A DNA stretch of 24,000 bases from contig NZ_VPEO01000002.1 in the NCBI RefSeq assembly GCF_013417155.1, positions 106,481-130,480 on the forward strand. The letters run 5' to 3'. Below the pieces are notes generated by a model. That model saw only the letters and a list, made by a program, of their open reading frames with translations. It did no database searches and was not told the DNA's origin. How positions within the stretch are numbered: position 1 is the first letter of the stretch; each line of letters opens with the position of its first letter. A program made the position numbers and the translations under genes. This DNA comes from Acinetobacter sp. YH16052. GTDB lineage: Bacteria; Pseudomonadota; Gammaproteobacteria; Pseudomonadales; Moraxellaceae. Below, one piece after another: positions 543 through 19,851 of this stretch.

Positions 543-3500
543 TTACCACTCAAACCAGCGGACAGGCTTAATCTTACGTGCCTGGCTATATTTATACAGA
601 TTTTGATCTGTTAAAGTTGTATTTGCAGGCTTACAATTTCCGACACAAGATTCTTGTGTCTCCGCAATAGGTCCAACCAACATGGTTGTTCTTGGATCAG
701 TAGAGGAAACAGCACCAAAGGCAGGGCCATTAATACCTTGATAGCTAGTTTTAACATATGCAGCACAGTCACCATATGGCATGCAAATACGGTGAGTCGT
801 AGAAATACCTGCCACACCACCACCACAACCACTTACAGTTCCAGTCAATGTCGCTTTCGGATCATACAGGCTGACATATAAATCACCAGTAATAAGCTGT
901 GAATCTTCAAATGCACGCGCATAATTTCCTGAATCAACTGAACGTAGTTCAAAACTCCAACCACGAAGCATAGTATTACCAGTTGTTAATTTCATATTAG
1001 CGATATCAGCAGCAGAAATTTGCTTAGAAACCGTTTTGCCAAGTATGCCTGAATTAGCCAAATTCGCTGGCAAAATAGTCGCAGCAGATGTAAAACTCGA
1101 GTTTTCCAAACCATTGGCTGCTGCATCACGGTCAATTAAACCGTAGATTTTGTTTTTTCCGCCGACTTCCGCTTCCAAAGGAAAACTGCGATTACCTGAA
1201 CCTGCTGTCACAAGTACAAAGCGGTTTTGCCCATCATCAAAAACTGCCGTAGATAAACGGTCATAGAAACGCGGTACAAATGTTCCATCTTTTAACTTCG
1301 CTATGGTTTGCACACGCACCGCAATATTAGTATTGTCAGTTGCAGACATTTGATTATTGTTATTCAAGTCTACACGGAAAATCTGTCCACCTAAATCTGC
1401 AAAATAAATCATGTCTGCAAGACCATCGGCATCATAATCACGTACCACAGGCTGCCCTACAACACTGTAATTTATATCACTATTAATCGTTTTCTTATAA
1501 CTGTCACTAATTCCTGAGCCATTTGAGCTACTCATCCAGATCAAGTTACCATTTGCAGCATCTACTATATATAAAGCGTTGCCATAAGTTGAGGACGGCT
1601 CTGTAAAAGTAGCCGCTGGTTTTTCATAAACATCAGCATCGTAACCGCCGCCAAAAATTAAGACTTTTTTACGTTCGCCTTTGACACGAATTTCAGCAAT
1701 AGTCGGTTTAGCCCAGATTTGAGCCATACGCTGAAATTCATTTGTTGATGTCGGTTTAATTTGGAATAATAGCTTCGGACTTGCTGGATTAAGTATATCC
1801 AATCCATAAAGCCCACTTCCCCCCATACGTAAACCGCCATAAATATTCATTTTATTGGCAACATATTTTGTGGTTGAAACTGTACCAGACTTAGTAATTT
1901 GCACCTTAAATGTATTGTCCGCTACCCATGGTGCATCTACACCATAAGCTATACCCGACAGGCTACCCACCCCTTTTGAATCTTTACCAGCCAACGTATC
2001 ATATTGATTCGTTATAATTTCTGGCGGAACAAATACCGACTGCTCTTTACCTGTCGAAGCATCCACAATATGCAAGCCGCCATCCATTGACCCATAAACT
2101 GTATATTCTTTACGTGTATCCGCAACATTACTAGAAGTTACTGTTGACTCTTTTGTTACCATGAGCGGCGTTGAATGCACCACCCCACCAAGGAATCTAT
2201 ATGGGCTAGCCGGATTTACTGCGAGCGTATTAATTTCTGTAGAAGTTAAAGTTGTCTGTGTCGCGGCTGCAGGAAATACAGTTTGATAACCCATATAATT
2301 CAACAAAGCTAGGCGCTGGTTAATTGTGTAAGTCCCGCTCAGAGCATCTGTACCAGTAGTATTCGTTGCCAGATTTGTCTTAGTCACTTTTTTTAAAGAA
2401 CTGCCATCTAAGATGTAGACTTTACGCTCACTATCTTTATTGCTGATTGAGTCTGCTTCAGCCAAAGCTGTAGATGGAACAGGAATTTTATTCCATGCAC
2501 CACCACTATTAATTAATGAATGGTCAGAGCCAGAAGCCGCGGTAGACCATAAATCTTTTGCAGATGAGTTAATAACCTGCTGATTGTTTTCAACTTTATA
2601 AATTGCATTATTACTGCTGTCTTTCAGCGTACCGTCAAGAATTTTATATTTCTTTAAATTCCCAGCCCATGTACGAAAGGTAGAATCTTCCATAGGCATA
2701 ATCATTGGGAAAAAACCTTCAGTCATAGATTTTGTCTGATCTAAAGGATCACGCGGTACAGATATGGAACCTAGGCTAGATGGGGTGAAACTAACTTCTA
2801 CATCCGATACAAATTTAATAATACTGTTTTTAATGTCATCCGCATTTTCGGCATAGTAGAAACCTCCGTCTCCATATTCAGCTCCGCCCCATTTACATGC
2901 ATTGTATGCATCTGGGTTATAATTTGATTTTGTAGGATCATTCACCGCTTCGCAGTTATAACTACCATCTCCATTTTCTGGAATACCGGCGAAAGAAGAA
3001 CCAAAACCAACCACTGCAGTTTTAATTTTCATATTGGCAGGGTTTTTGGTTGGGTCAAGAATCTTTTTTGAGTATGCCCCAATATATTCCCAACCTCCTG
3101 TTTCACCCGAAAATAGGTTAGATTTTAAAGCAGGGGAAACCAATACACTCCCGGTTGGTTTTGCAGAAAAACCATACGTTCCTGCTGGACTACCAGAGGC
3201 TAGAGTGGTGGTGAGCGTGTCATTCATAATCGCTCTTGCCATACTGTCTTTAGTCGAGTTAGGTGCACCATCGGTTAAGAAGTAAATACCGTTACCATTA
3301 CAACTACCCTCTGAACCACCTATATTGTATTTTGTGCCTGCTGCATTTTTGGTATCATTAGCGGAATAGGAAATACCACCACTTAAATTGTCAGTATAGG
3401 GGTTGCCAGAAGCCGTAAGAGCCGATTCCGTCAAAGCAAAAGGGTTAGTTCGGTAAGTCACTAAGTTACGAAAATCAGTATTTTGATCCCACGCTGCAGC

Positions 3501-4859
3501 AGCAACAGGCTCAATATCCATAGGTAGATTATCTACTTTCATCCAGCCGCCATAACGCCAACCCGATGGAAATTTTGAATATAACTGCCAATTATCATCT
3601 ACGGTGCCCATTCTAGTGATAAACTCTGTTTTAGCTACCGAATTATCCTTAATTCGAATCCAGCCCCCGTTACCATTAGGCTTATAAACATTATCAATCG
3701 TATCATTATGTACAGCTTTTCCATTACGGTACGGCCAAGAATTGATACATTGCTTAACATTATTGGTCCCCCCCAAGGCGTTCGTTGGCGTGGTCCCCAA
3801 TTCAACACAAATAAAATACGCTTGATCATCTTGATCACTAGTACTAGTTCTTCGTCTTAGTTGAGTTGCACCATCATATACATAATTAATATAATTGGTG
3901 GACAGACTGTTTGGGCGAGTTTGAGTTCCCATCATATAAGCAGCAGCTTCAGCATAAGCATGTGCAGTTGGGGTTCCGCTGGATGCTTTCTTAATGTCTT
4001 GCGGTGGATTTTTTGATGAGTAACGTTGTTTACTGGCAGTAAAGTTTTGAGTTTTACCGGATCCTACGTTATCTGTCACACTCTCAGTGTCAGCGTTAGA
4101 ACCATCTTGTTTTGTTTTTGTATCTAAAGACTGAAACTGGGCAATCGCCTGAATGAGCCTTAATCGATGTGCTCTCCCAACCGCATCCTTAGTCAGGGCT
4201 ACGTTTGGTACGAGAATATTACCTGAGTGCCCATCGACAAATTGAACATTACTACTCGCCGAACCCACTTTAAGTGAGGTTTGGGTAGAAAAGTGTCCCA
4301 AACCAATACTCACATCCGATAAGCTATCTTCATCTGCCAACAAGGTAATAATGGCATCTTTCAAGCGAGATAAACGGTCAAACTTACCTGTATTGCTTTC
4401 CACTAAATTACCATTACTATCGACTGTCGCTGTTCCACAACCACGCACATAGTAAGGTACAGTGGTACCGTTTACGATGACTGCTTTATAAAATGAGGTT
4501 TTAGTCCTTGTAGGGTTGGTAATCAAGGTGCCATTTACCCTCACTTGAGTACGGGTATCTATCGCATCATATTGGTACTCACGCATATTCCCCGCTTTAT
4601 TCCCACCAGACTCATGTACTTCCTGTTGAGCACATAAGGTACTATCCACATCCCCAGGGCTACCATAAGCATTATTTTTCGGCAGTACTAGAGAACTAAT
4701 CCCCATACTTCCTGATGTATCCAGCATTAACAGAATAGACGTTTTTCCAGTCGTATTTCCTCTATACAGGCTCAAGTCACTTGCAAGGACTGCTGTACTT
4801 GTTGGTACCGCCATCACTGGAAGCAAGGCCATCATTATTACAAGGGGTTTTAATCTCAT
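543..4859 (-). CDS. pilY1: PilY1-family type IV pilus tip adhesin / biogenesis factor (1438 aa)
   Basis: The protein has a signal peptide and an N-terminal vWA-like MIDAS motif LLMLDTSGSMG (nt 4701-4721). Its C-terminal region carries an EF-hand-like loop DYDADGLAD (nt 1413-1439) followed by IYFADLGGQIFRVD, as in the PilY1/PilC beta-propeller. It sits between pilX and pilE, and GGGAGAAGAG precedes the ATG. Confidence 0.9.
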   Translation of the reverse strand: MRLKPLVIMMALLPVMAVPTSTAVLASDLSLYRGNTTGKTSILLMLDTSGSMGISSLVLPKNNAYGSPGDVDSTLCAQQEVHESGGNKAGNMREYQYDAIDTRTQVRVNGTLITNPTRTKTSFYKAVIVNGTTVPYYVRGCGTATVDSNGNLVESNTGKFDRLSRLKDAIITLLADEDSLSDVSIGLGHFSTQTSLKVGSASSNVQFVDGHSGNILVPNVALTKDAVGRAHRLRLIQAIAQFQSLDTKTKQDGSNADTESVTDNVGSGKTQNFTASKQRYSSKNPPQDIKKASSGTPTAHAYAEAAAYMMGTQTRPNSLSTNYINYVYDGATQLRRRTSTSDQDDQAYFICVELGTTPTNALGGTNNVKQCINSWPYRNGKAVHNDTIDNVYKPNGNGGWIRIKDNSVAKTEFITRMGTVDDNWQLYSKFPSGWRYGGWMKVDNLPMDIEPVAAAAWDQNTDFRNLVTYRTNPFALTESALTASGNPYTDNLSGGISYSANDTKNAAGTKYNIGGSEGSCNGNGIYFLTDGAPNSTKDSMARAIMNDTLTTTLASGSPAGTYGFSAKPTGSVLVSPALKSNLFSGETGGWEYIGAYSKKILDPTKNPANMKIKTAVVGFGSSFAGIPENGDGSYNCEAVNDPTKSNYNPDAYNACKWGGAEYGDGGFYYAENADDIKNSIIKFVSDVEVSFTPSSLGSISVPRDPLDQTKSMTEGFFPMIMPMEDSTFRTWAGNLKKYKILDGTLKDSSNNAIYKVENNQQVINSSAKDLWSTAASGSDHSLINSGGAWNKIPVPSTALAEADSISNKDSERKVYILDGSSLKKVTKTNLATNTTGTDALSGTYTINQRLALLNYMGYQTVFPAAATQTTLTSTEINTLAVNPASPYRFLGGVVHSTPLMVTKESTVTSSNVADTRKEYTVYGSMDGGLHIVDASTGKEQSVFVPPEIITNQYDTLAGKDSKGVGSLSGIAYGVDAPWVADNTFKVQITKSGTVSTTKYVANKMNIYGGLRMGGSGLYGLDILNPASPKLLFQIKPTSTNEFQRMAQIWAKPTIAEIRVKGERKKVLIFGGGYDADVYEKPAATFTEPSSTYGNALYIVDAANGNLIWMSSSNGSGISDSYKKTINSDINYSVVGQPVVRDYDADGLADMIYFADLGGQIFRVDLNNNNQMSATDNTNIAVRVQTIAKLKDGTFVPRFYDRLSTAVFDDGQNRFVLVTAGSGNRSFPLEAEVGGKNKIYGLIDRDAAANGLENSSFTSAATILPANLANSGILGKTVSKQISAADIANMKLTTGNTMLRGWSFELRSVDSGNYARAFEDSQLITGDLYVSLYDPKATLTGTVSGCGGGVAGISTTHRICMPYGDCAAYVKTSYQGINGPAFGAVSSTDPRTTMLVGPIAETQESCVGNCKPANTTLTDQNLYKYSQARKIKPVRWFEW

Positions 4860-4884
4860 TTCTCTTCTCCCAATCTTCCAGTGC

Positions 4885-5694
4885 TTAATTTTTTGCTTCG
4901 GTTAAACGGACTACATATTCTGCAACTTGCGTATTCAGCGGTACACCCAGCTGATTTAAACATTCATGCAAGGTTTCAACCTTAACTTGGCCTACAGAAC
5001 TATTTGCACGATTCTTCAATAGCAAATCATCCATTACACGCCCTCTCAAACATGTATTCATATCCGACAAAGTTACAGACGGCGCCATAGCAGGAGCAAA
5101 CGATGTTGCAACCACACGAATACGCTTAGTATCTACATCCGCTTTTAAATCTGTATTTTTATTGGTTAATTCAAATTTGCGCATTTCCACTGCTGGATCA
5201 TCTGGATTAACAACAGAAACCTGCGTCACAATTGCTTTACGGCTGATAGAAAACATTGTTGCTGGATTACAAACCGCATCAATATCTCCAGAAAGCGCAG
5301 CGCTTACACCTGTAGCGGCAGTCGCCGAAGCACGCTCAATAATTCGAAAGTCGCCAAGATTAAAGAACATGTTATTTTTAGCCGCACTGCTTTCTATTTC
5401 TGTTGGTTTAAAACAAAACTGCAGCTCCTTACCTTGGTTGCCATCTAATAAAACTTGTCCAATTGGTGTACCCGCTAAATTCGTGCTTTCATTGGCATTA
5501 AAGTTTTTTTCTAAATGATCCAATGCCACGTCAGAAGTTTGCATTAATAAGGTTTGTACCTGAGCATTTGTCGCGAGCTTTAAGCTAAAAATACTGTTGC
5601 GGATAGCATACAAGCCAACAACAGTAATCAATATCAACAAAATCAATACTGTAATAAGGGTTACACCCTGCTGGTGTTTAGAATGATTTATCAT
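4885..5694 (-). CDS. pilX: PilX-like minor pilin
   Basis: The N-terminus QQGVTLITVLILLILITVVGLYAIRNS has PilX_N-type hydrophobicity. The gene lies between pilW and pilY1, and its ATG overlaps the pilW TAA by 1 nt (TAATG). Confidence 0.7.
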   Translation of the reverse strand: MINHSKHQQGVTLITVLILLILITVVGLYAIRNSIFSLKLATNAQVQTLLMQTSDVALDHLEKNFNANESTNLAGTPIGQVLLDGNQGKELQFCFKPTEIESSAAKNNMFFNLGDFRIIERASATAATGVSAALSGDIDAVCNPATMFSISRKAIVTQVSVVNPDDPAVEMRKFELTNKNTDLKADVDTKRIRVVATSFAPAMAPSVTLSDMNTCLRGRVMDDLLLKNRANSSVGQVKVETLHECLNQLGVPLNTQVAEYVVRLTEAKN

Positions 5695-12211: not shown

Positions 12212-12286
12212 TCATTTAAAACGATAGTGCTTTGATCGGCCGAATTGATCGAATATGATGTATGTCGATGATAAAAGGAGAAATTA

Positions 12287-12826: not shown

Positions 12827-12856
12827 TTGACAAACGATAACAATTATCAATAATAT
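12827..12856 (+). promoter_or_regulatory. Candidate sigma-70 promoter of bfd overlapped by a Fur-box-like sequence
   Basis: TTGACA (12827-12832) lies 18 nt upstream of TAATAT (12851-12856). GATAACAATTATCAATAAT (12836-12854) matches 13 of 19 positions of the Fur consensus GATAATGATAATCATTATC. A weaker AT-rich TCATGATAA-type repeat lies at about 12788-12806. Confidence 0.6.
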
Positions 12857-12890: not shown

Positions 12891-13085
12891 ATGTACGTTT
12901 GTCTATGCCGTGGCATTACAGATCAAGACATTAAAGATGCTATTGCAAATGGCGCTGAAAGTTATCGTGATGTCCGCGATATGTTGGACTTGGGAACTTG
13001 CTGTGGCCGCTGTGCACCAGAAGCCCGTATGATCATCAGTGATGAAGTTTCACAAATTGCAGCACGGCTGGCAGTTGCAGCATAA
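12891..13085 (+). CDS. bfd: Bacterioferritin-associated ferredoxin (BFD-like [2Fe-2S])
   Basis: MYVCLCRGITDQDIKDAI ... CCGRC gives the four-Cys CxC...CxxC pattern. The protein is 64 aa from the ATG at 12891. The ORF-track start at 12882 is a TTG. Confidence 0.9.
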   Translation: MYVCLCRGITDQDIKDAIANGAESYRDVRDMLDLGTCCGRCAPEARMIISDEVSQIAARLAVAA

Positions 13086-13147
13086 ATTAAAAATATTTCT
13101 CCTTATAAGCATAATGAAAAACAATGATCTTCGATCATTACTCCTCC

Positions 13148-13176
13148 CCCGCCTTTGACTCTGGCGGGTTTTTATT
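13148..13176 (+). terminator. Rho-independent terminator after bfd
   Basis: CCCGCC / GGCGGG stem with a 9-nt loop, followed by TTTTTATT on the plus strand. There is no T-run on the minus strand. Confidence 0.7.
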
Positions 13177-13179
13177 GCC

Positions 13180-13330
13180 ACTCATCTGAGTCTGGATCGA
13201 TTCGATGTCGATTTTCATTTGCTGTTCCTTGACATCCTCACCTCTCTAAATAGAGCTGATTCCTCCTGCGAGACGCTTATGCCCAAGCGCAAGTATGTTC
13301 TTAGCACTATTCAAGTCCCGATCCAGAACA
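13180..13330 (-). ncRNA. Predicted omega-RNA (reRNA) scaffold overlapping the tnpB 3' end and right end
   Basis: This call rests on position only. In characterised TnpB systems the guide RNA scaffold covers the 3' end of tnpB plus the right end. Local stem-loops are present, such as ATCGA...TCGAT at 13196-13206 and ACTC/GAGT around 13181-13192. No covariance-model search was possible. Confidence 0.3.
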
Positions 13331-14307
13331 CTTGAACAGTTTTCACATTCCCATACTCTTATTCGCAAATCTGCTCTACCTTTCGGACTGCTTGCAGTGA
13401 CCTCACCACAGCATGAACACATTTGGGTTGTGAAACTTTCACTAACTTCTTCAAACCATACTCCTGCGTTCTCGCATTTATACTTGAGCATGGTCTTGAA
13501 TGCTGAAAATCCGGTATCCAGAACAGACTTCGCCATCTTGGTTTTCACCAGTTTTTTCGCACTCAGATCGCCTACAACAATTAGTGCATTTTTCTTTATA
13601 AGCATTGTACTCGCTTTGTGCAAATGGTCTTTACGACAGTTTGCAATCTTGGCGTGTAATGCACGGACCCGTTTTCTATTTTTCGCTCGTTGAGCAATCC
13701 CTAATTTCTGTTCATATTGACGGTAGAACTTGGGATTTGAAATTATCGTACCATCCGAACAAGTGGCTATATCCTTTAAGCCCAGATCAATCCCAATCAA
13801 ATTAGTCGCAGTCGATTTCTCAATTTTAGGGCTATTCACAACTAAGCAGACATACCAGCGGCCACGCGCATCCTCGACAAACGAACCAGTCTTGATACTG
13901 TAATTTGACAGTCCATAGCTATCCCATATTTTAAACTGATGCTTGCCATACTGGATATGGCCATCAGCATACTTGATTGCTACTTTCTTAAAGGGTATCC
14001 AACCTAGTGATCTTCTGGCTGATTTCTTATGACTGACCCGCCATCTTAGTTTGGTCTTCTTGAATTGCTTTCTGCGTATGACTAATTCTTCGGTAATAGC
14101 CTGAATGGTTTGACTATGTAACCCACAAAGCCTAGATGTACCTTTCGTATATTCAGCAATATCGTAAGCACTGAGAAATTCACCTTTTCTTTTAAGGTGT
14201 TTAAAGCTTAAATCATTGACATAATTCCAGACGAAATTCACTTCAGATGCTAATTGCTCTAATATCTTGGAATGTTTATCTTTAATGCGTAATTTAAGTG
14301 TTTTCAT
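13246..14307 (-). CDS. tnpB: TnpB (OrfB) RNA-guided endonuclease-like transposon protein, 353 aa
   Basis: RuvC-I is IGIDLGLKD, the RuvC-II Glu is in VWFEEVSESFTTQ, and RuvC-III is LDRDLNSAKNI. The zinc ribbon is CSCCG...CENC. The basic bridge region is QRAKNRKRVRALHAKIANCRKDH. Confidence 0.93.
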   Translation of the reverse strand: MKTLKLRIKDKHSKILEQLASEVNFVWNYVNDLSFKHLKRKGEFLSAYDIAEYTKGTSRLCGLHSQTIQAITEELVIRRKQFKKTKLRWRVSHKKSARRSLGWIPFKKVAIKYADGHIQYGKHQFKIWDSYGLSNYSIKTGSFVEDARGRWYVCLVVNSPKIEKSTATNLIGIDLGLKDIATCSDGTIISNPKFYRQYEQKLGIAQRAKNRKRVRALHAKIANCRKDHLHKASTMLIKKNALIVVGDLSAKKLVKTKMAKSVLDTGFSAFKTMLKYKCENAGVWFEEVSESFTTQMCSCCGEVTASSPKGRADLRIRVWECENCSSVLDRDLNSAKNILALGHKRLAGGISSI

Positions 14308-14369
14308 GCGATTATTTTATCAATGAAAATAACCAATAGAATATCCAAAGTTAAAAATGTTAATTTGAA

Positions 14370-14386
14370 ACGACATTTCATGTCGT
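14370..14386 (-). repeat. Left-end subterminal hairpin of the tnpB element
   Basis: Perfect 7-bp stem ACGACAT-TTC-ATGTCGT (top strand ACGACAT GAA ATGTCGT), 63 nt upstream of the tnpB ATG. Confidence 0.5.
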
Positions 14387-14538
14387 ATGGCTTAGGTCAC
14401 TCATTTATATCCCTGCCTTGAAAACGAGGTTTTACGTTTGATTTGATAAATTACTCGCCATTTGCCCCTGACTTGCTTTACTATCAGGATTAGAGCGCTT
14501 TCTTAGAAAGATAAAACAGGTCCAAATGGAGTTATGCG

Positions 14539-15003
14539 ATGAAAGGCAATCGTGATGTGATTAATCAGCTCAATCAGGTGTTGTATCACCACTTAACTGC
14601 CATTAACCAGTATTTCCTGCATTCGCGCATGTTTAATGACTGGGGCATTGAGAAACTGGGCTCGGCAGAATATAAAGAATCCATTGTTCAGATGAAACAT
14701 GCCGACAAAATTATTGAACGTATTTTATTTTTGGAAGGTCTGCCGAATTTACAGAATCTGGGCAAACTGTATATTGGTCAGCATACTCAAGAAGTGCTGC
14801 ATTGTGATGTGCGCAAAGTTAAAGAAAATATTGAAGCCATCCAGAAAGCAGTCGCGCTGGCTGAAACCCAAATGGATTATGTAACGCGTGATCTGGTACA
14901 GGAAATCCTAGAGAAAGAAGAAAACTATCTGGATTGGACCACGACACAAATCGATCTGATCGAGAATATTGGCATCGAAAACTATATTCAAAGTCAGCTC
15001 TAA
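14539..15003 (+). CDS. bfr: Bacterioferritin
   Basis: MKGNRDVINQLNQVLYHHLTAINQYFLHSRMFNDWG gives the ferritin-like di-iron motifs. The protein is 154 aa, with GGAG upstream. Confidence 0.95.
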   Translation: MKGNRDVINQLNQVLYHHLTAINQYFLHSRMFNDWGIEKLGSAEYKESIVQMKHADKIIERILFLEGLPNLQNLGKLYIGQHTQEVLHCDVRKVKENIEAIQKAVALAETQMDYVTRDLVQEILEKEENYLDWTTTQIDLIENIGIENYIQSQL

Positions 15004-15050: not shown

Positions 15051-16685
15051 TTAGCGAGGTACATCCTGCGTTAATTCTTCATAACTCATTTCAGTTTTCT
15101 GAATGGTCTTTAAGCGTTGCAGCTGGTGCTTGGCTTCCGCCTCATATCCATTAAAAGCTAAAAGTTTGGCATATTTGATCAGGTTATATTTAGTCGGATA
15201 ACTCAAGACCATTTGTTCACCTTCCTGAATCTGTTCAGCAGACGCTTTGCTATAAGGATTCAGACGAATCCAGGCAATACGATGATTAAACTCAGTCAGT
15301 AGATAAATTGGTTTTTCATTGGTGATTTTTTCCGGCTGTTTTTCATAACGAATACTTTGCCCGAGTTTTGGTACTGCAACATCATAATCGCGATAAATCA
15401 CAATTAATAGAAGTAACCCAACAGAAAAAATGAATTTCATACCAATTGATGGCATAACCACTTTTTTAGTTTTTGGACTTTGTGCCAGAACCGTACCCAG
15501 AATAAAACCTACTGGCAACAGGAAATAGGCATAATGCTGTGGAAACTCAAACATGGCATGTGTGACAAATGCTCCAATCATCAAAATTCCAATGACAGAC
15601 TCTGGCGTATTGACCCAGCGTTGCAACTGATAGCCCAAATAACCAAAGTAGGCCAAGAAAGGCAGACCGATGATTAATCCATTCCAGAGCAAAAAGTCCA
15701 GAATAAAATTATGTGAACTACGAATCCAGACCGGACCTTGCACCGTATCACTAATCGAGACAAAAGCGACACTGGTCTGATACCAGCCATAGCCAAACCA
15801 TGGCTGCGCCTGAATGGCTGCCAGCATCTGCTGCCAGATTGCGAGGCGTGACATATCACCGGTAGCACGCGCTACTACATCTCGGCTTTGGACTACGTCC
15901 GTATTCATCACCTGTGCAGCCAGCTGACTGAGTAATGGAAAAGCCACAATACAGCAAATAAAGAAGATGAACCAAGCGGTGCTGTAAACCCATTTCAGGT
16001 GAATAATGCCTTTATATTGGTAGAACGCTAAATACAGCATGATGGCGGTTGCAGCGACCCATGCAGTACGCGACTGACTTAACGCCACTCCCATGACAAT
16101 CACAGCAGCGCAGGCAAACAACCATTTGGTCTGGATTTTTTTCTTTTCATAGAGGTACAAACAGCTCATCAATGCCATGACTAAAAAAGTTGCCATATTA
16201 TTGGGCTGGGCGAAGTTGGCATAGGGCCGCTGATTGCCACTGATATTCACCATGCCTGGCAATATTGAGTCAAGATTTATCCACTGACATAGAGCAATTA
16301 ATCCTGTAATGGTGCCTGACACCAAGAATACATAGCTTAAATGGGTAAAGGTTTCTTCTCGGCTATTGTTTCCTGTAGAAAAATTATAGCCAAGTACACT
16401 TGCCAGCCAAAAGCTAAAAACAAAAATAAAGCCCATCATGGCAGTGCTAAAGAAAAATACCTGTCCTGTCAGAAAATGTATCAGTGGTACACAGGCGAGT
16501 AGCAATAATGGCAGACTGAGAGCTGGAATTTTGAGTTTTTCTTTGAGGCAAATTGCAGCTAAAGCAAATAGTACAAAAAAGGCATATAGCTCACCCGTAT
16601 ATGTCACCCAAGGCCGATAATGAATGGGCATGAGCCATGCAAGGGAAATGAGAATTGCTGCTATTAGAGCGAGCATGAATTTCAT
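15051..16685 (-). CDS. pglL: O-antigen-ligase-family (Wzy_C) polytopic membrane protein, PglL-like general O-oligosaccharyltransferase
   Basis: About 12 predicted TM segments. Motifs are RPYANFAQPNNMATF, LSQSRTAWV, QPWFGYGWYQTS, SSHNFILDFLLWNG and HAMFEFPQHYAYFLLP. Its position next to bfr and near pilA matches the described Acinetobacter pglL locus. The symbol is assigned by synteny and architecture only. Confidence 0.7.
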   Translation of the reverse strand: MKFMLALIAAILISLAWLMPIHYRPWVTYTGELYAFFVLFALAAICLKEKLKIPALSLPLLLLACVPLIHFLTGQVFFFSTAMMGFIFVFSFWLASVLGYNFSTGNNSREETFTHLSYVFLVSGTITGLIALCQWINLDSILPGMVNISGNQRPYANFAQPNNMATFLVMALMSCLYLYEKKKIQTKWLFACAAVIVMGVALSQSRTAWVAATAIMLYLAFYQYKGIIHLKWVYSTAWFIFFICCIVAFPLLSQLAAQVMNTDVVQSRDVVARATGDMSRLAIWQQMLAAIQAQPWFGYGWYQTSVAFVSISDTVQGPVWIRSSHNFILDFLLWNGLIIGLPFLAYFGYLGYQLQRWVNTPESVIGILMIGAFVTHAMFEFPQHYAYFLLPVGFILGTVLAQSPKTKKVVMPSIGMKFIFSVGLLLLIVIYRDYDVAVPKLGQSIRYEKQPEKITNEKPIYLLTEFNHRIAWIRLNPYSKASAEQIQEGEQMVLSYPTKYNLIKYAKLLAFNGYEAEAKHQLQRLKTIQKTEMSYEELTQDVPR

Positions 16686-16723
16686 GGAAATATCAAGCGG
16701 TAGAAGTTTGGCACATGATAAAC

Positions 16724-16759
16724 AAAAAGCAGATTAAAGGGGAATCTGCTTTTTGTTTT
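16724..16759 (-). terminator. Hairpin terminator between the 245-aa gene and the pglL-like gene
   Basis: AGCAGATT-AAAGGGG-AATCTGCT (16728-16750) has T-runs on both strands. Confidence 0.6.
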
Positions 16760-16776
16760 GATCTTTCAAATACAAG

Positions 16777-17508
16777 TTAGTTCCACGGGCGAAGGTCGAC
16801 GATTGCAAGTGGTTTACCCTGTGCATCAAGCAGTACCGTCATATCTATTTGACTTGCCTTTAGTGGTACAAATCCTACTGCTGTAGGTGAGTCGTCTAAA
16901 ATTTTACGAACACTTAATGCCTCATTGTACTCATAAAGTTTTCTAATATTCAAAATATTTTTACCTAGCACAAGTGCTTTATTATCAAATTCAATATAAC
17001 GATCTGGCATTTGTGATAATGACACTCCTCCAAGCACTTCCGTAAATAAATCAGCTTGACGCTTTTGAATATCTGTAGCCACCTCAACCATCACATATTG
17101 GGGTTTTAATAATGAGGGCTGTTTGTACTGTGGGTGTGCCTTTTCAATATTTTCATTGATGATTTCATTTTTACGCACAAGCTCAAAACGGTCTACATTA
17201 TAAACAATCCAAGCTGGTCGCCCCTGCTCCAAACTATAAATACCATACATCAAAGCCGAAATCTGGATCAAAATAATGACAGTCAAATCAAATTTTAAGG
17301 TTTTTTTATGTTCTTTATAAACCAATAAACCTAATAAAGGTCCAACAATAATATCAATAGCAAATAACATTAAAATGATATAAGTTACACCAACAGCTTT
17401 TGCAAGTGGTGTAGGGTACCAACAGTAAAAAACAACCCCAAGCACCACTAGGGCAATGATAAAGGATAACGTTAGATGCTTGATAAAAAACTGAATACGC
17501 TTTGTCAT
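16777..17508 (-). CDS. 3-TM membrane protein, putative type IV pilin accessory protein (TfpX/TfpY/TfpZ/FimB-like)
   Basis: Three N-terminal TM helices (LTLSFIIALVVLGVVFYCWYP, VTYIILMLFAIDIIVGPLLGLLVY, LTVIILIQISALMYGIY) precede a soluble C-terminal part of about 150 aa. The gene lies in the pilA downstream cassette. The family assignment comes from remembered architecture and the WYP / GPLL-type motifs, and was not searched. The ATG at 17508 is preferred over the TTG at 17514. Confidence 0.45.
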   Translation of the reverse strand: MTKRIQFFIKHLTLSFIIALVVLGVVFYCWYPTPLAKAVGVTYIILMLFAIDIIVGPLLGLLVYKEHKKTLKFDLTVIILIQISALMYGIYSLEQGRPAWIVYNVDRFELVRKNEIINENIEKAHPQYKQPSLLKPQYVMVEVATDIQKRQADLFTEVLGGVSLSQMPDRYIEFDNKALVLGKNILNIRKLYEYNEALSVRKILDDSPTAVGFVPLKASQIDMTVLLDAQGKPLAIVDLRPWN

Positions 17509-17514
17509 AACCAA

Positions 17515-19173
17515 TTACTTCATGTTTGGGGCTGATAGATCATCATGCTTTTTTAAAAATAGCGATGCAATATTATTACTTTGGTGTGTATCGATTTTTG
17601 ATAAATCTTTGAATAAAGCCTTTTTATTATATAGTGCATTCGATACTTCAAAATAATAATTTGCTTTCACCCAATCTTGATTAAAGTAAAATATTTGTGC
17701 CATTTTAAATAAATTATAGTAGCTTGGTTGACTAACTACATAGTGCTCAAATGAATCTAATTTGTCTTCAGCATACTGTTTATCCACTTTTGCAACAATA
17801 AACTCAGCTCGATCTGCAAACTGTGAAAAAATGACTGATTGCTTATTTTGTGATTGACCTGTATTTTCCATACCTGATGCATAGCCCAGATTCGTCAACC
17901 ATTGATCATATTGTTGAAATATTAAAGCGTAAAATATAATTGAAAATAAAAAAGTTACTTGCTTTAATTTTTCATTGATTGAGATTGTATTGACATTGCA
18001 ATTTATCAATAATACTCCAACAAAGAACCCCAAAGGGAATAAGAAATAGCTATAATATAGTGGATATTCAAGCTGAGCATGCACCAATATACATAGCATC
18101 ATTATAAATACATAAAGTTCATCTGTTGTTTTAATATTACAAATAATCACCTTGATTAAGTACAAACTATAAAAAATCAAAAGAATACCGAATGGAATGC
18201 CTACCCATAGTATTAAATCAATCATAATATTATGTGCACTTGAGAGATTGCCTTCATTTTTAAACAGCAGTACACCTTGAAGCTGAGCAATCGTAGTTTG
18301 ATACCATCCATAGCCAAGCCAAGGCTGCTGTTGGATGGCATAGATCATATGCTTCCACATTTCAATACGCGCAAAACCACCATTAATACGATCTTCTAAA
18401 GGTACAGGTATAACCAAATTAAAATATTGTGCGATCTGTGCATTAAATATAAAAATTAGCGCATATGAACAGAAGAAAAACGATAGTAAATAATGTGTTG
18501 TTCTTTTTTTGAAACGAATTTTTTTAAATAGATATCTAAACAACAGTACAATCAAAATAATCCAAGTTGTTCTAGATTGCGTCAAAGCAAGTGCAAGAAA
18601 TTGTAAAAAGAGTATAGGGATATATATAAAACATTTGTATTTAAGCTGTTCATATAAAAACACAACACTACAAATACTCAGCATCAAAAGTGTTGCCAAA
18701 TGATTCGGCTGACCTAAATTTGCATAAGGTCGATTGTGAATTAAATTTAAGATACAAGGATGAGAAATTTGCAACCATTGCGCAATGGCGAATAGACTAC
18801 TAATCAATCCAATAAGCGTATAAAAATACGCAATATATTGAATAATTTTATTTTTATCAGCCAAGTGATGGCTATTATAGCCATATAAAACAGTGGCTAC
18901 AAAAGCAAAAATGAAAATAAAACTCAAAAATGCCGTAGAAAAATAATATACCTGCCCAAAAGTAAATTGGACTAAAGGAATGAAACATATACAAAGAATA
19001 GGAATAGTAATTTTAGGCAGTTTAACTTCTTTTTTATAAAATAAGCTAAAAGATAAAATTAGACCCAAAAACCATAAAAAATCTTGCGAAGATGAAGTCC
19101 ATGGAAACGCAGATAGGCCTATAAAGTAAGATAACCCAAAACAAAGAAAAATTATAAAAATTATAATACTCAT
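17515..19173 (-). CDS. Pilin-linked O-oligosaccharyltransferase paralog (Wzy_C family; TfpO- or PglS/PglL-ComP-like)
   Basis: It shares its architecture and motifs with the 15051-16685 protein. Its versions are RPYANLGQPNHLATL, LTQSRTTWI, QPWLGYGWYQTT, SAHNIMIDLILWVG and HAQLEYPLYYSYFLFP. It lies immediately downstream of pilA. Confidence 0.75.
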   Translation of the reverse strand: MSIIIFIIFLCFGLSYFIGLSAFPWTSSSQDFLWFLGLILSFSLFYKKEVKLPKITIPILCICFIPLVQFTFGQVYYFSTAFLSFIFIFAFVATVLYGYNSHHLADKNKIIQYIAYFYTLIGLISSLFAIAQWLQISHPCILNLIHNRPYANLGQPNHLATLLMLSICSVVFLYEQLKYKCFIYIPILFLQFLALALTQSRTTWIILIVLLFRYLFKKIRFKKRTTHYLLSFFFCSYALIFIFNAQIAQYFNLVIPVPLEDRINGGFARIEMWKHMIYAIQQQPWLGYGWYQTTIAQLQGVLLFKNEGNLSSAHNIMIDLILWVGIPFGILLIFYSLYLIKVIICNIKTTDELYVFIMMLCILVHAQLEYPLYYSYFLFPLGFFVGVLLINCNVNTISINEKLKQVTFLFSIIFYALIFQQYDQWLTNLGYASGMENTGQSQNKQSVIFSQFADRAEFIVAKVDKQYAEDKLDSFEHYVVSQPSYYNLFKMAQIFYFNQDWVKANYYFEVSNALYNKKALFKDLSKIDTHQSNNIASLFLKKHDDLSAPNMK

Positions 19174-19186
19174 ATTAACTTTATTC

Positions 19187-19215
19187 TAAAAAAAGCTGAC
19201 CGAAGTCAGCTTTTG
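19187..19215 (-). terminator. Rho-independent terminator after pilA
   Basis: On the minus strand, AGCTGAC-TTCG-GTCAGCT is followed by TTTTTTT. It lies 13 nt after the pilA stop codon, with 14 nt between the end of its T-run and the next ATG (19173). Confidence 0.8.
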
Positions 19216-19227
19216 ATTCTTAATATT

Positions 19228-19779
19228 TTAGAATGTTCCAGCAGTTTGAGAAACACGGCATGTTGCTGGAAGATATTTTTGCATTGCTGCAAGCTCTGTT
19301 GATACAGGACCACAGCTCCACTCTTTAATTAAAGCACCAGCAGCTGTATTAGTTGCTGGAGAAACGGTTGAAATAGTTAAATTAGAACCGTTAGCTAATT
19401 TAGGTGTCATGTAGATATATTTACCACTTGCTCCTTTTAAAGAAGGATCCGTAGTTAACAATACTTGAATTTGACCAACTGCCATTCCAGTAGAAGAAAC
19501 TTTGATTGTTTGTACATATTTAGTGGCTGCAGTAGCTGCTGCCGTACCTGAGCCCTGTTCACACCCCCATAAAGCATCTGTACCTGATGGGATTGAACCT
19601 GAATCAACGGCTTCCGTTACTGCTGTACGACAAGAAGAAGCAGCTAAAATACCTTCAGATACTTTTGCACGAACTGTATAATCTTGGTATGCAGGAAGTG
19701 CAACTGCAGCAAGAATACCGATAATTGCTACAACAATCATTAATTCAATAAGGGTAAAACCCTTTTGTACTGTATTCAT
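19228..19779 (-). CDS. pilA: Major type IVa pilin (prepilin)
   Basis: [34 protein letters not shown] is the canonical leader and alpha1-N. A C-terminal disulfide pair lies in [24 protein letters not shown] sits 6 nt before the ATG at 19779. The ORF-track start at 19791 adds 4 unlikely codons. Confidence 0.9.
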
Positions 19780-19851
19780 AACATTCTCCACAAATGTTTT
19801 TGTTTATTTATAAGCCTAAAGAAAGAGCTCATTTAGCTTAATTTTATATTT

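Follow-up and report, generated by a model that had tools for sequence, protein, structure and literature searches.

How does a transposon nuclease gene persist once the transposase that moved it is gone? TnpB genes are among the most abundant genes in prokaryotes and most copies have no transposase; how these "orphan" copies persist is an open question. We addressed it for a tnpB gene in the genome of Acinetobacter sp. YH16052, using a stretch of 24,000 nucleotides (positions 106,481 to 130,480 of contig NZ_VPEO01000002.1) that we will call the window. An earlier note, made by reading this DNA, described a 353-amino-acid TnpB encoded antisense between bfd and bfr, and the open reading frame (ORF) at 13246-14307, which matches guided_TnpB and Pfam profiles, bears this out. 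(Coordinates are positions within the window.) We find that near-identical elements with this gene occupy the same site in lineages whose flanks are strongly diverged. RNA-guided homing, in which the nuclease would cut alleles that lack the element and repair would copy it in, is, we infer, the most economical explanation of this population pattern.

By exact protein matches and a scan of species-representative genomes, the window belongs to Acinetobacter lwoffii. We compared 33 alleles of the bfd-bfr site, of which 26 are filled (the window and 25 others) and 7 are empty. Twelve of the 25 further filled alleles are from representatives of distinct GTDB species clusters (A. lwoffii, A. idrijaensis, and Acinetobacter sp.). 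The elements in the filled alleles are 97.6-100% identical to the window element. Copies at 97% identity or above were found at 29 loci, and every one of them is at the bfd-bfr site. We found no plasmid or phage with the window element; only relatives at 69-79% identity are found there.

The flanking genes are far more diverged. Flank identity to the window is 94-97% on the side of bfd, ridA, and spoT and 86-94% on the side of bfr and pglL. The synonymous divergence (dS) from the window is 0-0.065 for tnpB, as compared to 0.06-0.21 for bfd, 0.11-0.51 for bfr, 0.10-0.35 for ridA, 0.23-0.43 for spoT, and 0.55-0.95 for pglL. In other words, dS for tnpB is 5-10 times below that of the flanking genes (Fisher p = 1e-8 to 1e-24). 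Constraint is not the cause of the low dS, because the synonymous sites of tnpB vary freely between paralogs (74-84% nucleotide identity).

The flanks also have a different genealogy. In A. lwoffii ED23-35 (CP082143), the bfd-bfr site contains a TnpB that is 100% identical, in an element with no differences from that of the window in 1217 bp. Outside the element, substitutions between the two appear at 25, 26, 43, and 51 nt from the left end (LE) and at 34, 48, 97, 125 nt and so on from the right end (RE). The alleles L002 and L021 have 0 differences in 1217 bp, with substitutions from 25 nt outside the LE and 34 nt outside the RE. To define flank haplotypes we used a table based on MAFFT alignments, which replaced an ungapped comparison that broke down after indels; one allele (L029) was left out of one flank comparison. 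Elements with at most 2 differences are found on at least 4 right-flank haplotypes. One of these haplotypes resembles the flank of L032, though the L032 element differs at 29 positions. The flank haplotype of the window is identical to that of three empty alleles (L012, L013, and L018), and L013 is otherwise a close relative of the window (dS of 0.04 for spoT). Flank positions -16 to +19 are invariant in 33/33 alleles, and variation begins at +20.

The empty alleles also define the element. The earlier note expected that empty sites could be recovered from relatives and would give the ends, the target-adjacent motif (TAM), and the guide. Empty bfd-bfr spacers do occur in close relatives, and they give exact junctions, a 5-nt TAM beside the LE, and the guide. 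The extent that had been proposed (13180-14410) needs correction: the element spans 13229-14445, a shift of about 35-50 bp, and 13180-13228 is bfd-bfr spacer that includes the guide or target. The junctions are unambiguous, as we aligned filled and empty spacers from contigs that encode identical Bfr proteins. Read on the minus strand, the left junction is ...GGCGAGTAATTTAT followed by the LE, CAAATCAAACG..., and the right junction is the end of the RE, ...GAGGTGAGGATGTCAA, followed by the flank, GGAACAGCAAATGAAAATCG... All 25 further filled alleles have an element of 1217 bp, and the homology to paralogs at other sites (74-84% nucleotide identity) ends exactly at 13229 and 14445.

Other features of the ends agree with these boundaries. 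The right ends of the family's paralogs all read ...GAGGATGTCAA, with unrelated sequence beyond, and the terminal tail is near-invariant across family copies whose following flanks are unrelated. A plain scan for terminal motifs found a single LE and a single RE. The RE reaches just 17 nt beyond the stop codon of tnpB, and the stop codon itself (TAG, 13246-13248) lies within the loop of the RE hairpin. TTTAT precedes the LE in 19/20 distinct junctions of the family, including those of relatives that carry tnpA. Comparison of empty and filled alleles shows insertion 3' of TTTAT without any duplicated base. As for the subterminal hairpins, the one in the RE is present and covaries, while the one in the LE is found in relatives and is eroded in the window copy. 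We are close to certain of the identity and anatomy of the element.

In the empty allele, TTTAT and the target are contiguous (TTTAT followed by GGAACAGC...), and both are intact in all 7 empty alleles. In the filled allele the target is preceded by GTCAA instead of the TAM, so the element is not a target of its own guide. (We assumed a guide template of 20 nt; the range is 16-20 nt beyond the RE.) The locus thus resembles those of homing elements: presence or absence is polymorphic at a single site, the recognition site is intact solely in empty alleles, and the element is less diverged than its flanks and genealogically discordant with them.

We propose that the tnpB transcript would be translated into TnpB and that its 3' part would be processed into an omegaRNA, whose guide would be read from the 20 nt directly beyond the right end. 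The ribonucleoprotein would recognize TTTAT followed by GGAACAGCAAATGAAAATCG, a combination that is found only in the allele without the element. The nuclease would cut this empty allele, and repair from a filled copy, either the sister chromosome or DNA taken up by transformation, would re-install the element. Acinetobacter is a genus that is generally naturally transformable. If this TnpB behaves like that of ISDra2, its break would be some 15-21 nt inside the right flank, which would fit the onset of flank variation at +20. Homing by TnpB has laboratory precedents: restorative homing after excision by TnpA (Meers et al., PMC10055086) and a TnpB gene drive among plasmid copies (Mears et al., PMC11870625). 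For nature, entry into empty chromosomal alleles has so far been a hypothesis, and a 2026 review described the spread of TnpB into populations as "awaiting experimental validation." Overall, we consider it fairly probable that this is an IS200/IS605 element that is non-autonomous and that spreads by homing under RNA guidance. That the nuclease drives the spread has, in our judgment, an even chance or slightly better.

The pattern could also be due to ordinary homologous recombination after natural transformation, in a neutral sweep or a selected one, with the nuclease contributing nothing. Recombination is extensive in Acinetobacter, the neighboring pilin/pglL region is a mosaic (50-90% identity), and the left flank, which is conserved for at least 200 nt, would be a good recombination arm. 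Also, the insertion is 93 bp upstream of the bfr start codon (ATG), where it could alter the expression of bfr. But ordinary recombination should carry flanking markers along over hundreds of base pairs or more, and at this site differences begin again 25-34 nt beyond each end, in several independent combinations of haplotypes. Elements at four unrelated sites (discussed below) are also younger than their flanks, which makes an advantage that is specific to bfr unlikely. Nor would spread without the nuclease fit with the nuclease ORF, the catalytic residues, and the omegaRNA structure all having been kept by selection. We consider ordinary recombination to be an unlikely explanation, with a real chance of being right.

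Several points weigh against homing. The 33 alleles are a modest sample, and they are not phylogenetically independent. For recombinational repair, conversion tracts that end at most 25-34 nt from the element are short. The flanks adjoin the highly recombining pilin/pglL region, so independent replacement of the flanks may account for part of the pattern. We assume that these strains are naturally competent. One close TnpA cluster is labelled "MULTISPECIES Acinetobacter," though lwoffii does not appear explicitly in the names of the TnpA homologs, and the negative result for tnpA (see below) covers the window and the surroundings of related tnpB loci. Finally, in the LE, a consensus scan and a reading of the sequence gave no sigma-70 promoter and no Shine-Dalgarno sequence that would convincingly serve tnpB.

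Is the nuclease likely to be active? The protein scores 244 bits against guided_TnpB from NCBIfam (the cutoff is 100), and it contains OrfB_IS605 (PF01385) and the zinc-ribbon domain Cas12f1-like_TNB (PF07282), with zinc-ribbon cysteines at C297/C300 and C321/C324. We located the motifs IGIDLGLKD (D174), FEEVSE (E286/E287/E290), and LDRDLNSAKNI (D329/D331), which the earlier note had read as retaining all three catalytic positions of RuvC. When aligned to TnpB from ISDra2, D174 corresponds to D191 and D331 corresponds to D361. The canonical RuvC-II glutamate of ISDra2 (E278, in IGTEHL) aligns with G246 (in VVGDLS) and not with FEEVSE, so the canonical D-E-D triad is not present at the ISDra2 positions. 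The two aspartates and the zinc ribbon stand as proposed, and the conserved glutamate is a relocated one, E290. The note had said that catalytic residues outside of the expected positions would argue against nuclease activity. The glutamate is indeed off its canonical site, and this is a known rearranged type (TnpB2/RIIr) with experimental precedent, so it need not be inactivating.

The rearrangement is conserved. When we aligned this TnpB with 70 diverse full-length homologs (35-57% identity), the G246 column contained glycine in 69/71 sequences. E290, which is the last residue of FEEVSE, was kept in 70/71; ISDra2 has a proline at that column. In an alignment of 64 sequences (34-90% identity), the invariant residues include G172, D174, G176, G246, E290, C297, C300, C321, C324, R330, D331, and N333. 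In the AlphaFold2 model (pLDDT 90.1, pTM 0.76), D174 ends the strand 169-175, G246 ends the strand 240-246, E290 is just past the strand 284-288, and D331 is at the start of the helix 330-342. The closest folds are TnpB from ISFba1 and ISDra2. PDB entry 9b0l (ApmFanzor2) also matches TnpB (E = 1e-26).

These features are those of the RuvC-II-rearranged (RIIr) clades, also described as TnpB2, which have glycine or proline at the canonical glutamate and an alternative glutamate about 45 residues downstream, on the next strand (PMC10530073, PMC10691335). Here, the canonical position is glycine, and the invariant alternative glutamate is 44 residues downstream, after a beta-strand. One RuvC-II-rearranged enzyme, TvTnpB, shows TAM-specific cleavage and no collateral activity, and the E467A mutant of ApmFanzor is dead. 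(Our likening of E290 to E467 of ApmFanzor2 is based on the spacing and on the literature.) Judging from its sequence, this TnpB is of the RuvC-II-rearranged type, with D174, the relocated E290, and D331 as the catalytic trio. Since the published rearranged enzymes are active, we predict that TnpB with G246 is active as well, via D174/E290/D331.

The gene also appears to be maintained. The ORF and the catalytic residues are intact in 25/25 of the further filled alleles, and the more diverged copies at this site have a dN/dS of about 0.13-0.33, which indicates that tnpB is intact, is under purifying selection, and is not a relic. This fits the earlier view of it as a plausible active nuclease, with the activity being predicted. 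An old element that is inherited vertically and is decaying without current activity would explain why tnpA is lost and why the LE hairpin is eroded. But the intact ORFs and a dN/dS well below 1 argue against this, and the 5-10-fold deficit of dS in tnpB and the discordance between the element's genealogy and that of its flanks led us to exclude it; we see hardly any chance that the element is such a relic. Similarly, the uninterrupted bfd-bfr sites in relatives (the 7 empty alleles) do not indicate an ancient fixed gene.

Could the element still move by transposition? In the 24-kb window, we found no Y1 transposase, either by comparing all ORFs of at least 100 amino acids to Pfam or by scanning for HUH/Tyr motifs. 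This agrees with the earlier note, and it makes the element non-autonomous. At 7 related loci, a divergently oriented Y1 TnpA of 135-138 amino acids is encoded upstream of tnpB (Pfam Y1_Tnp, 150-160 bits). These loci are from A. schindleri, A. bohemicus, Acinetobacter sp. Ver3, and metagenome-assembled genomes, and they have the same TTTAT-LE plan. The first ~57 nt of the window's LE align to the LE of these autonomous relatives, up to the stop of tnpA, and the last ~25 nt align to the region around the start of tnpA and the intergenic sequence. By this alignment, the window copy is a clean tnpA-deletion derivative of the LE-tnpA-tnpB arrangement. An upstream remnant of tnpA would have altered the classification of the element. 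We can rule out a remnant within the LE, as homology halts at the tnpA stop and resumes at the tnpA start or intergenic region. The LE contains a perfect 7-bp hairpin (Table 1) that has no counterpart in the LE of the autonomous relatives.

The LE hairpin forms in a conserved register in all of the relatives (-2.1 to -8.9 kcal/mol) but is absent from the window copy, where the minimum free energy is -1.5 kcal/mol, in another register (z = -0.27). With tnpA lost and the LE hairpin eroded, hopping of the window copy via TnpA seems unlikely, and homing would be its main way to persist and spread.

A Y1 TnpA from elsewhere in the genome, or from an incoming plasmid or phage, might nevertheless mobilize the element in trans, with repeated excision and re-insertion at the same TTTAT. 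Cognate tnpA genes adjoin related tnpBs in other Acinetobacter, and relatives of the element are found on mobilizable plasmids and in a phage. The RE hairpin and the TCAA end are intact, and exact insertion with zero co-conversion of the flanks is the expected product of TnpA. But the target of TnpA would be just a ~5-nt motif, and yet all 29 loci at 97% identity or above are at one site, and every paralog lineage is likewise confined to a site of its own. The hairpin that is eroded is required for recognition by TnpA. Also, none of the roughly 30 loci that are labelled A. lwoffii (among 80 loci) has an adjacent tnpA. We consider mobilization in trans to be improbable.

Homing would also require a guide RNA. 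The predicted omegaRNA scaffold takes in the final ~210 nt of tnpB together with the non-coding tail of 17 nt. We aligned the last 260 nt of 34 distinct elements of the family and computed a consensus structure with RNAalifold. Nucleotide conservation in this region is above what coding alone explains, and there are many compensatory changes. The consensus has 45 pairs; 97.6% of cells are paired, as compared to 33-44% if the partners are slid. In 79 cells, both sides are changed, versus 28 ± 4 in shuffles (0/500 shuffles were as high). Helix 10, which is the RE hairpin, has 4 pairs with changes on both sides. This covariation supports a structured omegaRNA that overlaps the 3' end of tnpB and the RE. 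The guide flank beyond the RE differs for each insertion site. Rfam does not contain this omegaRNA: a scan of the window at the gathering thresholds and a permissive scan of 13050-13650 gave only chance-level matches (MicA, JPX, and sR38, with E about 1). TnpB of ISDra2 is reported to process its own mRNA into omegaRNA (PMC10278001), so a separate promoter for the omegaRNA is not required.

A conserved block that begins around position 990 of the element recurs in plasmid and phage matches, from which we estimate that the scaffold is about 228 nt long (13229-13456). In several Ralstonia phages, the match is confined to positions ~991-1217 of the element (67-68% nucleotide identity). This suggests that the 3' coding/omegaRNA block is far more conserved across genera than the rest of tnpB. 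Two Acinetobacter plasmids (NZ_CP127894.1, positions 2501-2729 of our locus L101, and NZ_CP127913.1) contain just the last 228 nt of a related element, at 88% identity, directly downstream of an IS110-family transposase gene. We rejected the idea that these are omegaRNA-only mini-elements, because tnpB was cut off by the insertion of the IS110 element.

Within the omegaRNA, a central hairpin (alignment columns 157-195 and 227-241) overlaps the second CxxC of the zinc ribbon. It stays paired while its sequence, register, and length differ between paralogs (GTGGAAT/ATTCCAC, CATGAG/CTCATG, or CAGAAC/GTCTGG). Two loci (L096 and L097) have a 14-nt insertion in this hairpin, and another (L095) has a 15-nt insertion in another helix.

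The A. lwoffii group contains at least five lineages of TnpB-only paralogs, each confined across strains to one chromosomal site of its own. The four lineages besides the one at bfd-bfr show the same excess conservation of the element over its flanks, for instance 99.5-99.9% identity versus 84-97% (related loci L035-L068 and L084/L085). One of these elements lies between ridA and spoT in A. lwoffii strain 72 and A. pseudolwoffii ANC 5044 (L057/L058, ~3989-5073). It is 99.8% identical between A. lwoffii and A. pseudolwoffii, with flanks at 90-95%. This paralog is 78% identical in nucleotide sequence to the window element, and it is about 1 kb from an empty bfd-bfr site. In the window, the ridA-spoT site is empty (12251-12275, minus strand) and reads TTTAT followed by CATCGACATACATCATATTC, which differs from the guide of the paralog at a single base, TAM-proximal position 4. 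This mismatch could make it a resistant allele.

A broader proposal is that the TnpA-less TnpB/omegaRNA elements of the A. lwoffii group are chromosomal "gene drives" that home by RNA guidance. Each lineage would be locked by its guide to one site, and it would sweep horizontally through diverged lineages and named species (for instance, from A. lwoffii to A. pseudolwoffii): empty alleles would be cut, and the element would be copied in from DNA taken up by natural transformation. The LE hairpin, which only transposition needs, would decay, while the nuclease and the omegaRNA would be kept. For this proposal, we see the balance of probabilities as even.

The earlier note offered domestication as the alternative to a non-autonomous element. 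On this hypothesis, the gene would be immobile and would act on the iron-storage locus, as an RNA-guided regulator like TldR or in another host function. The element is single-copy and without TnpA, its position is fixed, the iron genes on either side are regulated, and exapted TnpBs are documented. But nuclease-dead TldRs lack the catalytic residues that are conserved here, the site is filled or empty within close relatives, the transposon ends are kept, and there are paralogs at unrelated loci. The guide matches the empty allele and no promoter elsewhere, and there is no TAM-adjacent match in the filled window. The catalytic residues (kept in 25/25 alleles) and the match of the guide to the empty allele only led us to reject a domesticated or TldR-like regulator, which we consider very improbable. 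So the element is non-autonomous, as proposed, and it does not appear to be domesticated.

The coordinates of the element and the adjacent genes are in Table 1. Between bfd and the element, terminator-like hairpins lie back to back (13116-13176). The minus-strand hairpin (13146->13116) is AATGATC-GAA-GATCATT followed by a run of T, and the bfd terminator on the plus strand (about 13148-13176) is CCCGCC...GGCGGG followed by TTTTT. The minus-strand hairpin is a possible stop for read-through transcription of tnpB and the omegaRNA, and the paired hairpins would shield bfd from read-through from the element. The region's best sigma-70-like promoter is upstream of bfd, at 12827-12856 (TTGACA-16-AATAAT, 11/12 matches). 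It overlaps an AT-rich dyad, GATAACAATTATCAATAATATTAC, that resembles a Fur box.

Table 1. Positions of the tnpB element, its parts, and the adjacent genes within the window.
Feature	Position	Strand	Comment
bfd (bacterioferritin-associated ferredoxin)	12891-13085	plus	Pfam Fer2_BFD, NCBIfam PRK10509; on the RE side; 64 amino acids in related genomes
Terminator-like hairpin on the element's strand	13116-13146	minus	83-113 nt beyond the RE; consensus scan only
Guide template (filled allele) or TnpB target (empty allele), GGAACAGCAAATGAAAATCG	13209-13228	minus	Abuts the RE directly
Whole element	13229-14445	minus	1217 bp; non-autonomous IS200/IS605 family, TnpB-only, IS1341-type; no target-site duplication
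RE terminal tail, AGGATGTCAA	13229-13238	minus	Ends in the right-end cleavage motif TCAA
Predicted omegaRNA scaffold	13229-13456	minus	~228 nt, almost all within the 3' coding region of tnpB; 5' limit approximate
RE subterminal hairpin (3'-terminal stem-loop of the omegaRNA)	13239-13258	minus	Compensatory changes among paralogs
tnpB coding sequence	13246-14307	minus	353 amino acids
Catalytic-site codons	D174, 13786-13788; G246, 13570-13572; E290, 13438-13440; D331, 13315-13317	minus	
LE	14308-14445	minus	138 nt upstream of the tnpB ATG
Perfect 7-bp hairpin in the LE, ACGACAT-TTC-ATGTCGT	14370-14386		Read from the sequence
Position of the LE subterminal hairpin	14411-14429	minus	Recognition element for TnpA in relatives; eroded in the window copy
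TAM or insertion motif, 5'-TTTAT-3'	14446-14450	minus	Directly 5' of the LE
bfr (bacterioferritin)	14539-15003	plus	TIGR00754, 205 bits; on the LE side

The remaining genes of the window code for type IV minor pilins (one of them ComP-like), ispH, gmk, rpoZ, spoT, ridA, two PglL-type O-oligosaccharyltransferases, a pilin, TPM/LemA proteins, and a gltD-like oxidoreductase. The region at 15051-19800 contains the two oligosaccharyltransferase genes, an ORF of 245 amino acids without a match in Pfam, and the pilin gene. This region is highly variable (50-90% identity between strains), and its gene content differs between loci, which suggests a recombination hot spot adjoining bfr. At 543-4859 on the minus strand is a 1438-amino-acid ORF with no match in Pfam at E ≤ 0.001. 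It lies among minor-pilin genes (ComP-like, PilX, PilW, PilV-like, and FimU/GspH-like), and it is possibly a divergent tip protein of the PilY1/ComC type.

Should these elements home as proposed, this would be the first evidence from natural populations that a TnpB, and specifically a RuvC-II-rearranged bacterial one, can home in the canonical, inter-allelic way. The locus also offers a natural test system: the ends, TAM, and guide are exact, close relatives supply matched alleles of both kinds, filled and empty, and one flank haplotype occurs in both states. There are five independent site-locked lineages in which the element is younger than its flanks. A compact bacterial TnpB of 353 amino acids, with a rearranged active site and a TTTAT TAM, is relevant to the discovery of genome-editing tools, and the tested relatives with this type of active site have no collateral activity.

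Among known systems, the element is an uncharacterised new member of the IS200/IS605 TnpB-only elements, of the RuvC-II-rearranged TnpBs, and of OMEGA systems. IS608/IS605 from Helicobacter pylori transposes by the peel-and-paste mechanism of Y1 transposases, and it inserts 3' of a short motif without duplication. One hairpin is ~17 nt within its LE and another is ~10 nt short of the end of its RE, which terminates in TCAA, and there are no inverted repeats. The ends of the window element's family have this architecture, and its autonomous relatives have divergent tnpA and tnpB genes, as in IS605. The differences are in the target, which is TTTAT instead of TTAC, and in the window copy's lack of tnpA and degraded LE hairpin.

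The TnpB-omegaRNA complex of ISDra2 from Deinococcus radiodurans (PDB 8EXA/8H1J; PMC8612924, PMC10097598) has the same fold (TMq 0.56-0.67). The RuvC-I aspartate and the RuvC-III motif DRDxN align, and both proteins have the CxxC..CxxC zinc ribbon. Both systems have a T-rich pentanucleotide TAM 5' of the LE (TTGAT for ISDra2 and TTTAT for the window element), and in both, the omegaRNA is from the 3' end of tnpB and the RE, and its guide comes from the sequence that follows the RE. But the proteins are only about 22% identical, ISDra2 has the canonical E278 instead of G246 and a relocated E290, and ISDra2 carries tnpA. The active site is more like that of TnpB2 (PMC10530073), RIIr-3/RIIr-5 (PMC10691335), and Fanzors, which share the glycine at the canonical glutamate, the alternative glutamate after the next beta-strand, and DRDxN in RuvC-III. 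The tested proteins of this type are archaeal (TvTnpB, with TAM NTGAC and with TnpA) or are from eukaryotes or viruses, and no member from Acinetobacter is characterised.

The element resembles TldRs in being a TnpA-less tnpB homolog at a fixed chromosomal position, but it retains the catalytic residues and the transposon ends, its site is polymorphic, and its guide is directed at the empty allele. Like homing endonuclease genes and group I introns, it is present or absent at one site, its insertion destroys the target, and it is younger than its flanks and discordant with them. In contrast to these, recognition would be by a guide RNA and a 5-nt motif instead of by a protein, and there is no intron or intein context. 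The mechanism of restorative homing by TnpB and of the plasmid gene drive is the one that we propose here: the guide keeps a record of where the element was inserted, this site is cut when empty, and a filled copy is the template for repair. Those are laboratory demonstrations, while the pattern at bfd-bfr is natural, is chromosomal, lies between lineages, and involves TnpA-less elements. This natural, chromosomal, between-lineage signature of homing by TnpA-less elements is the less ordinary part of our results.

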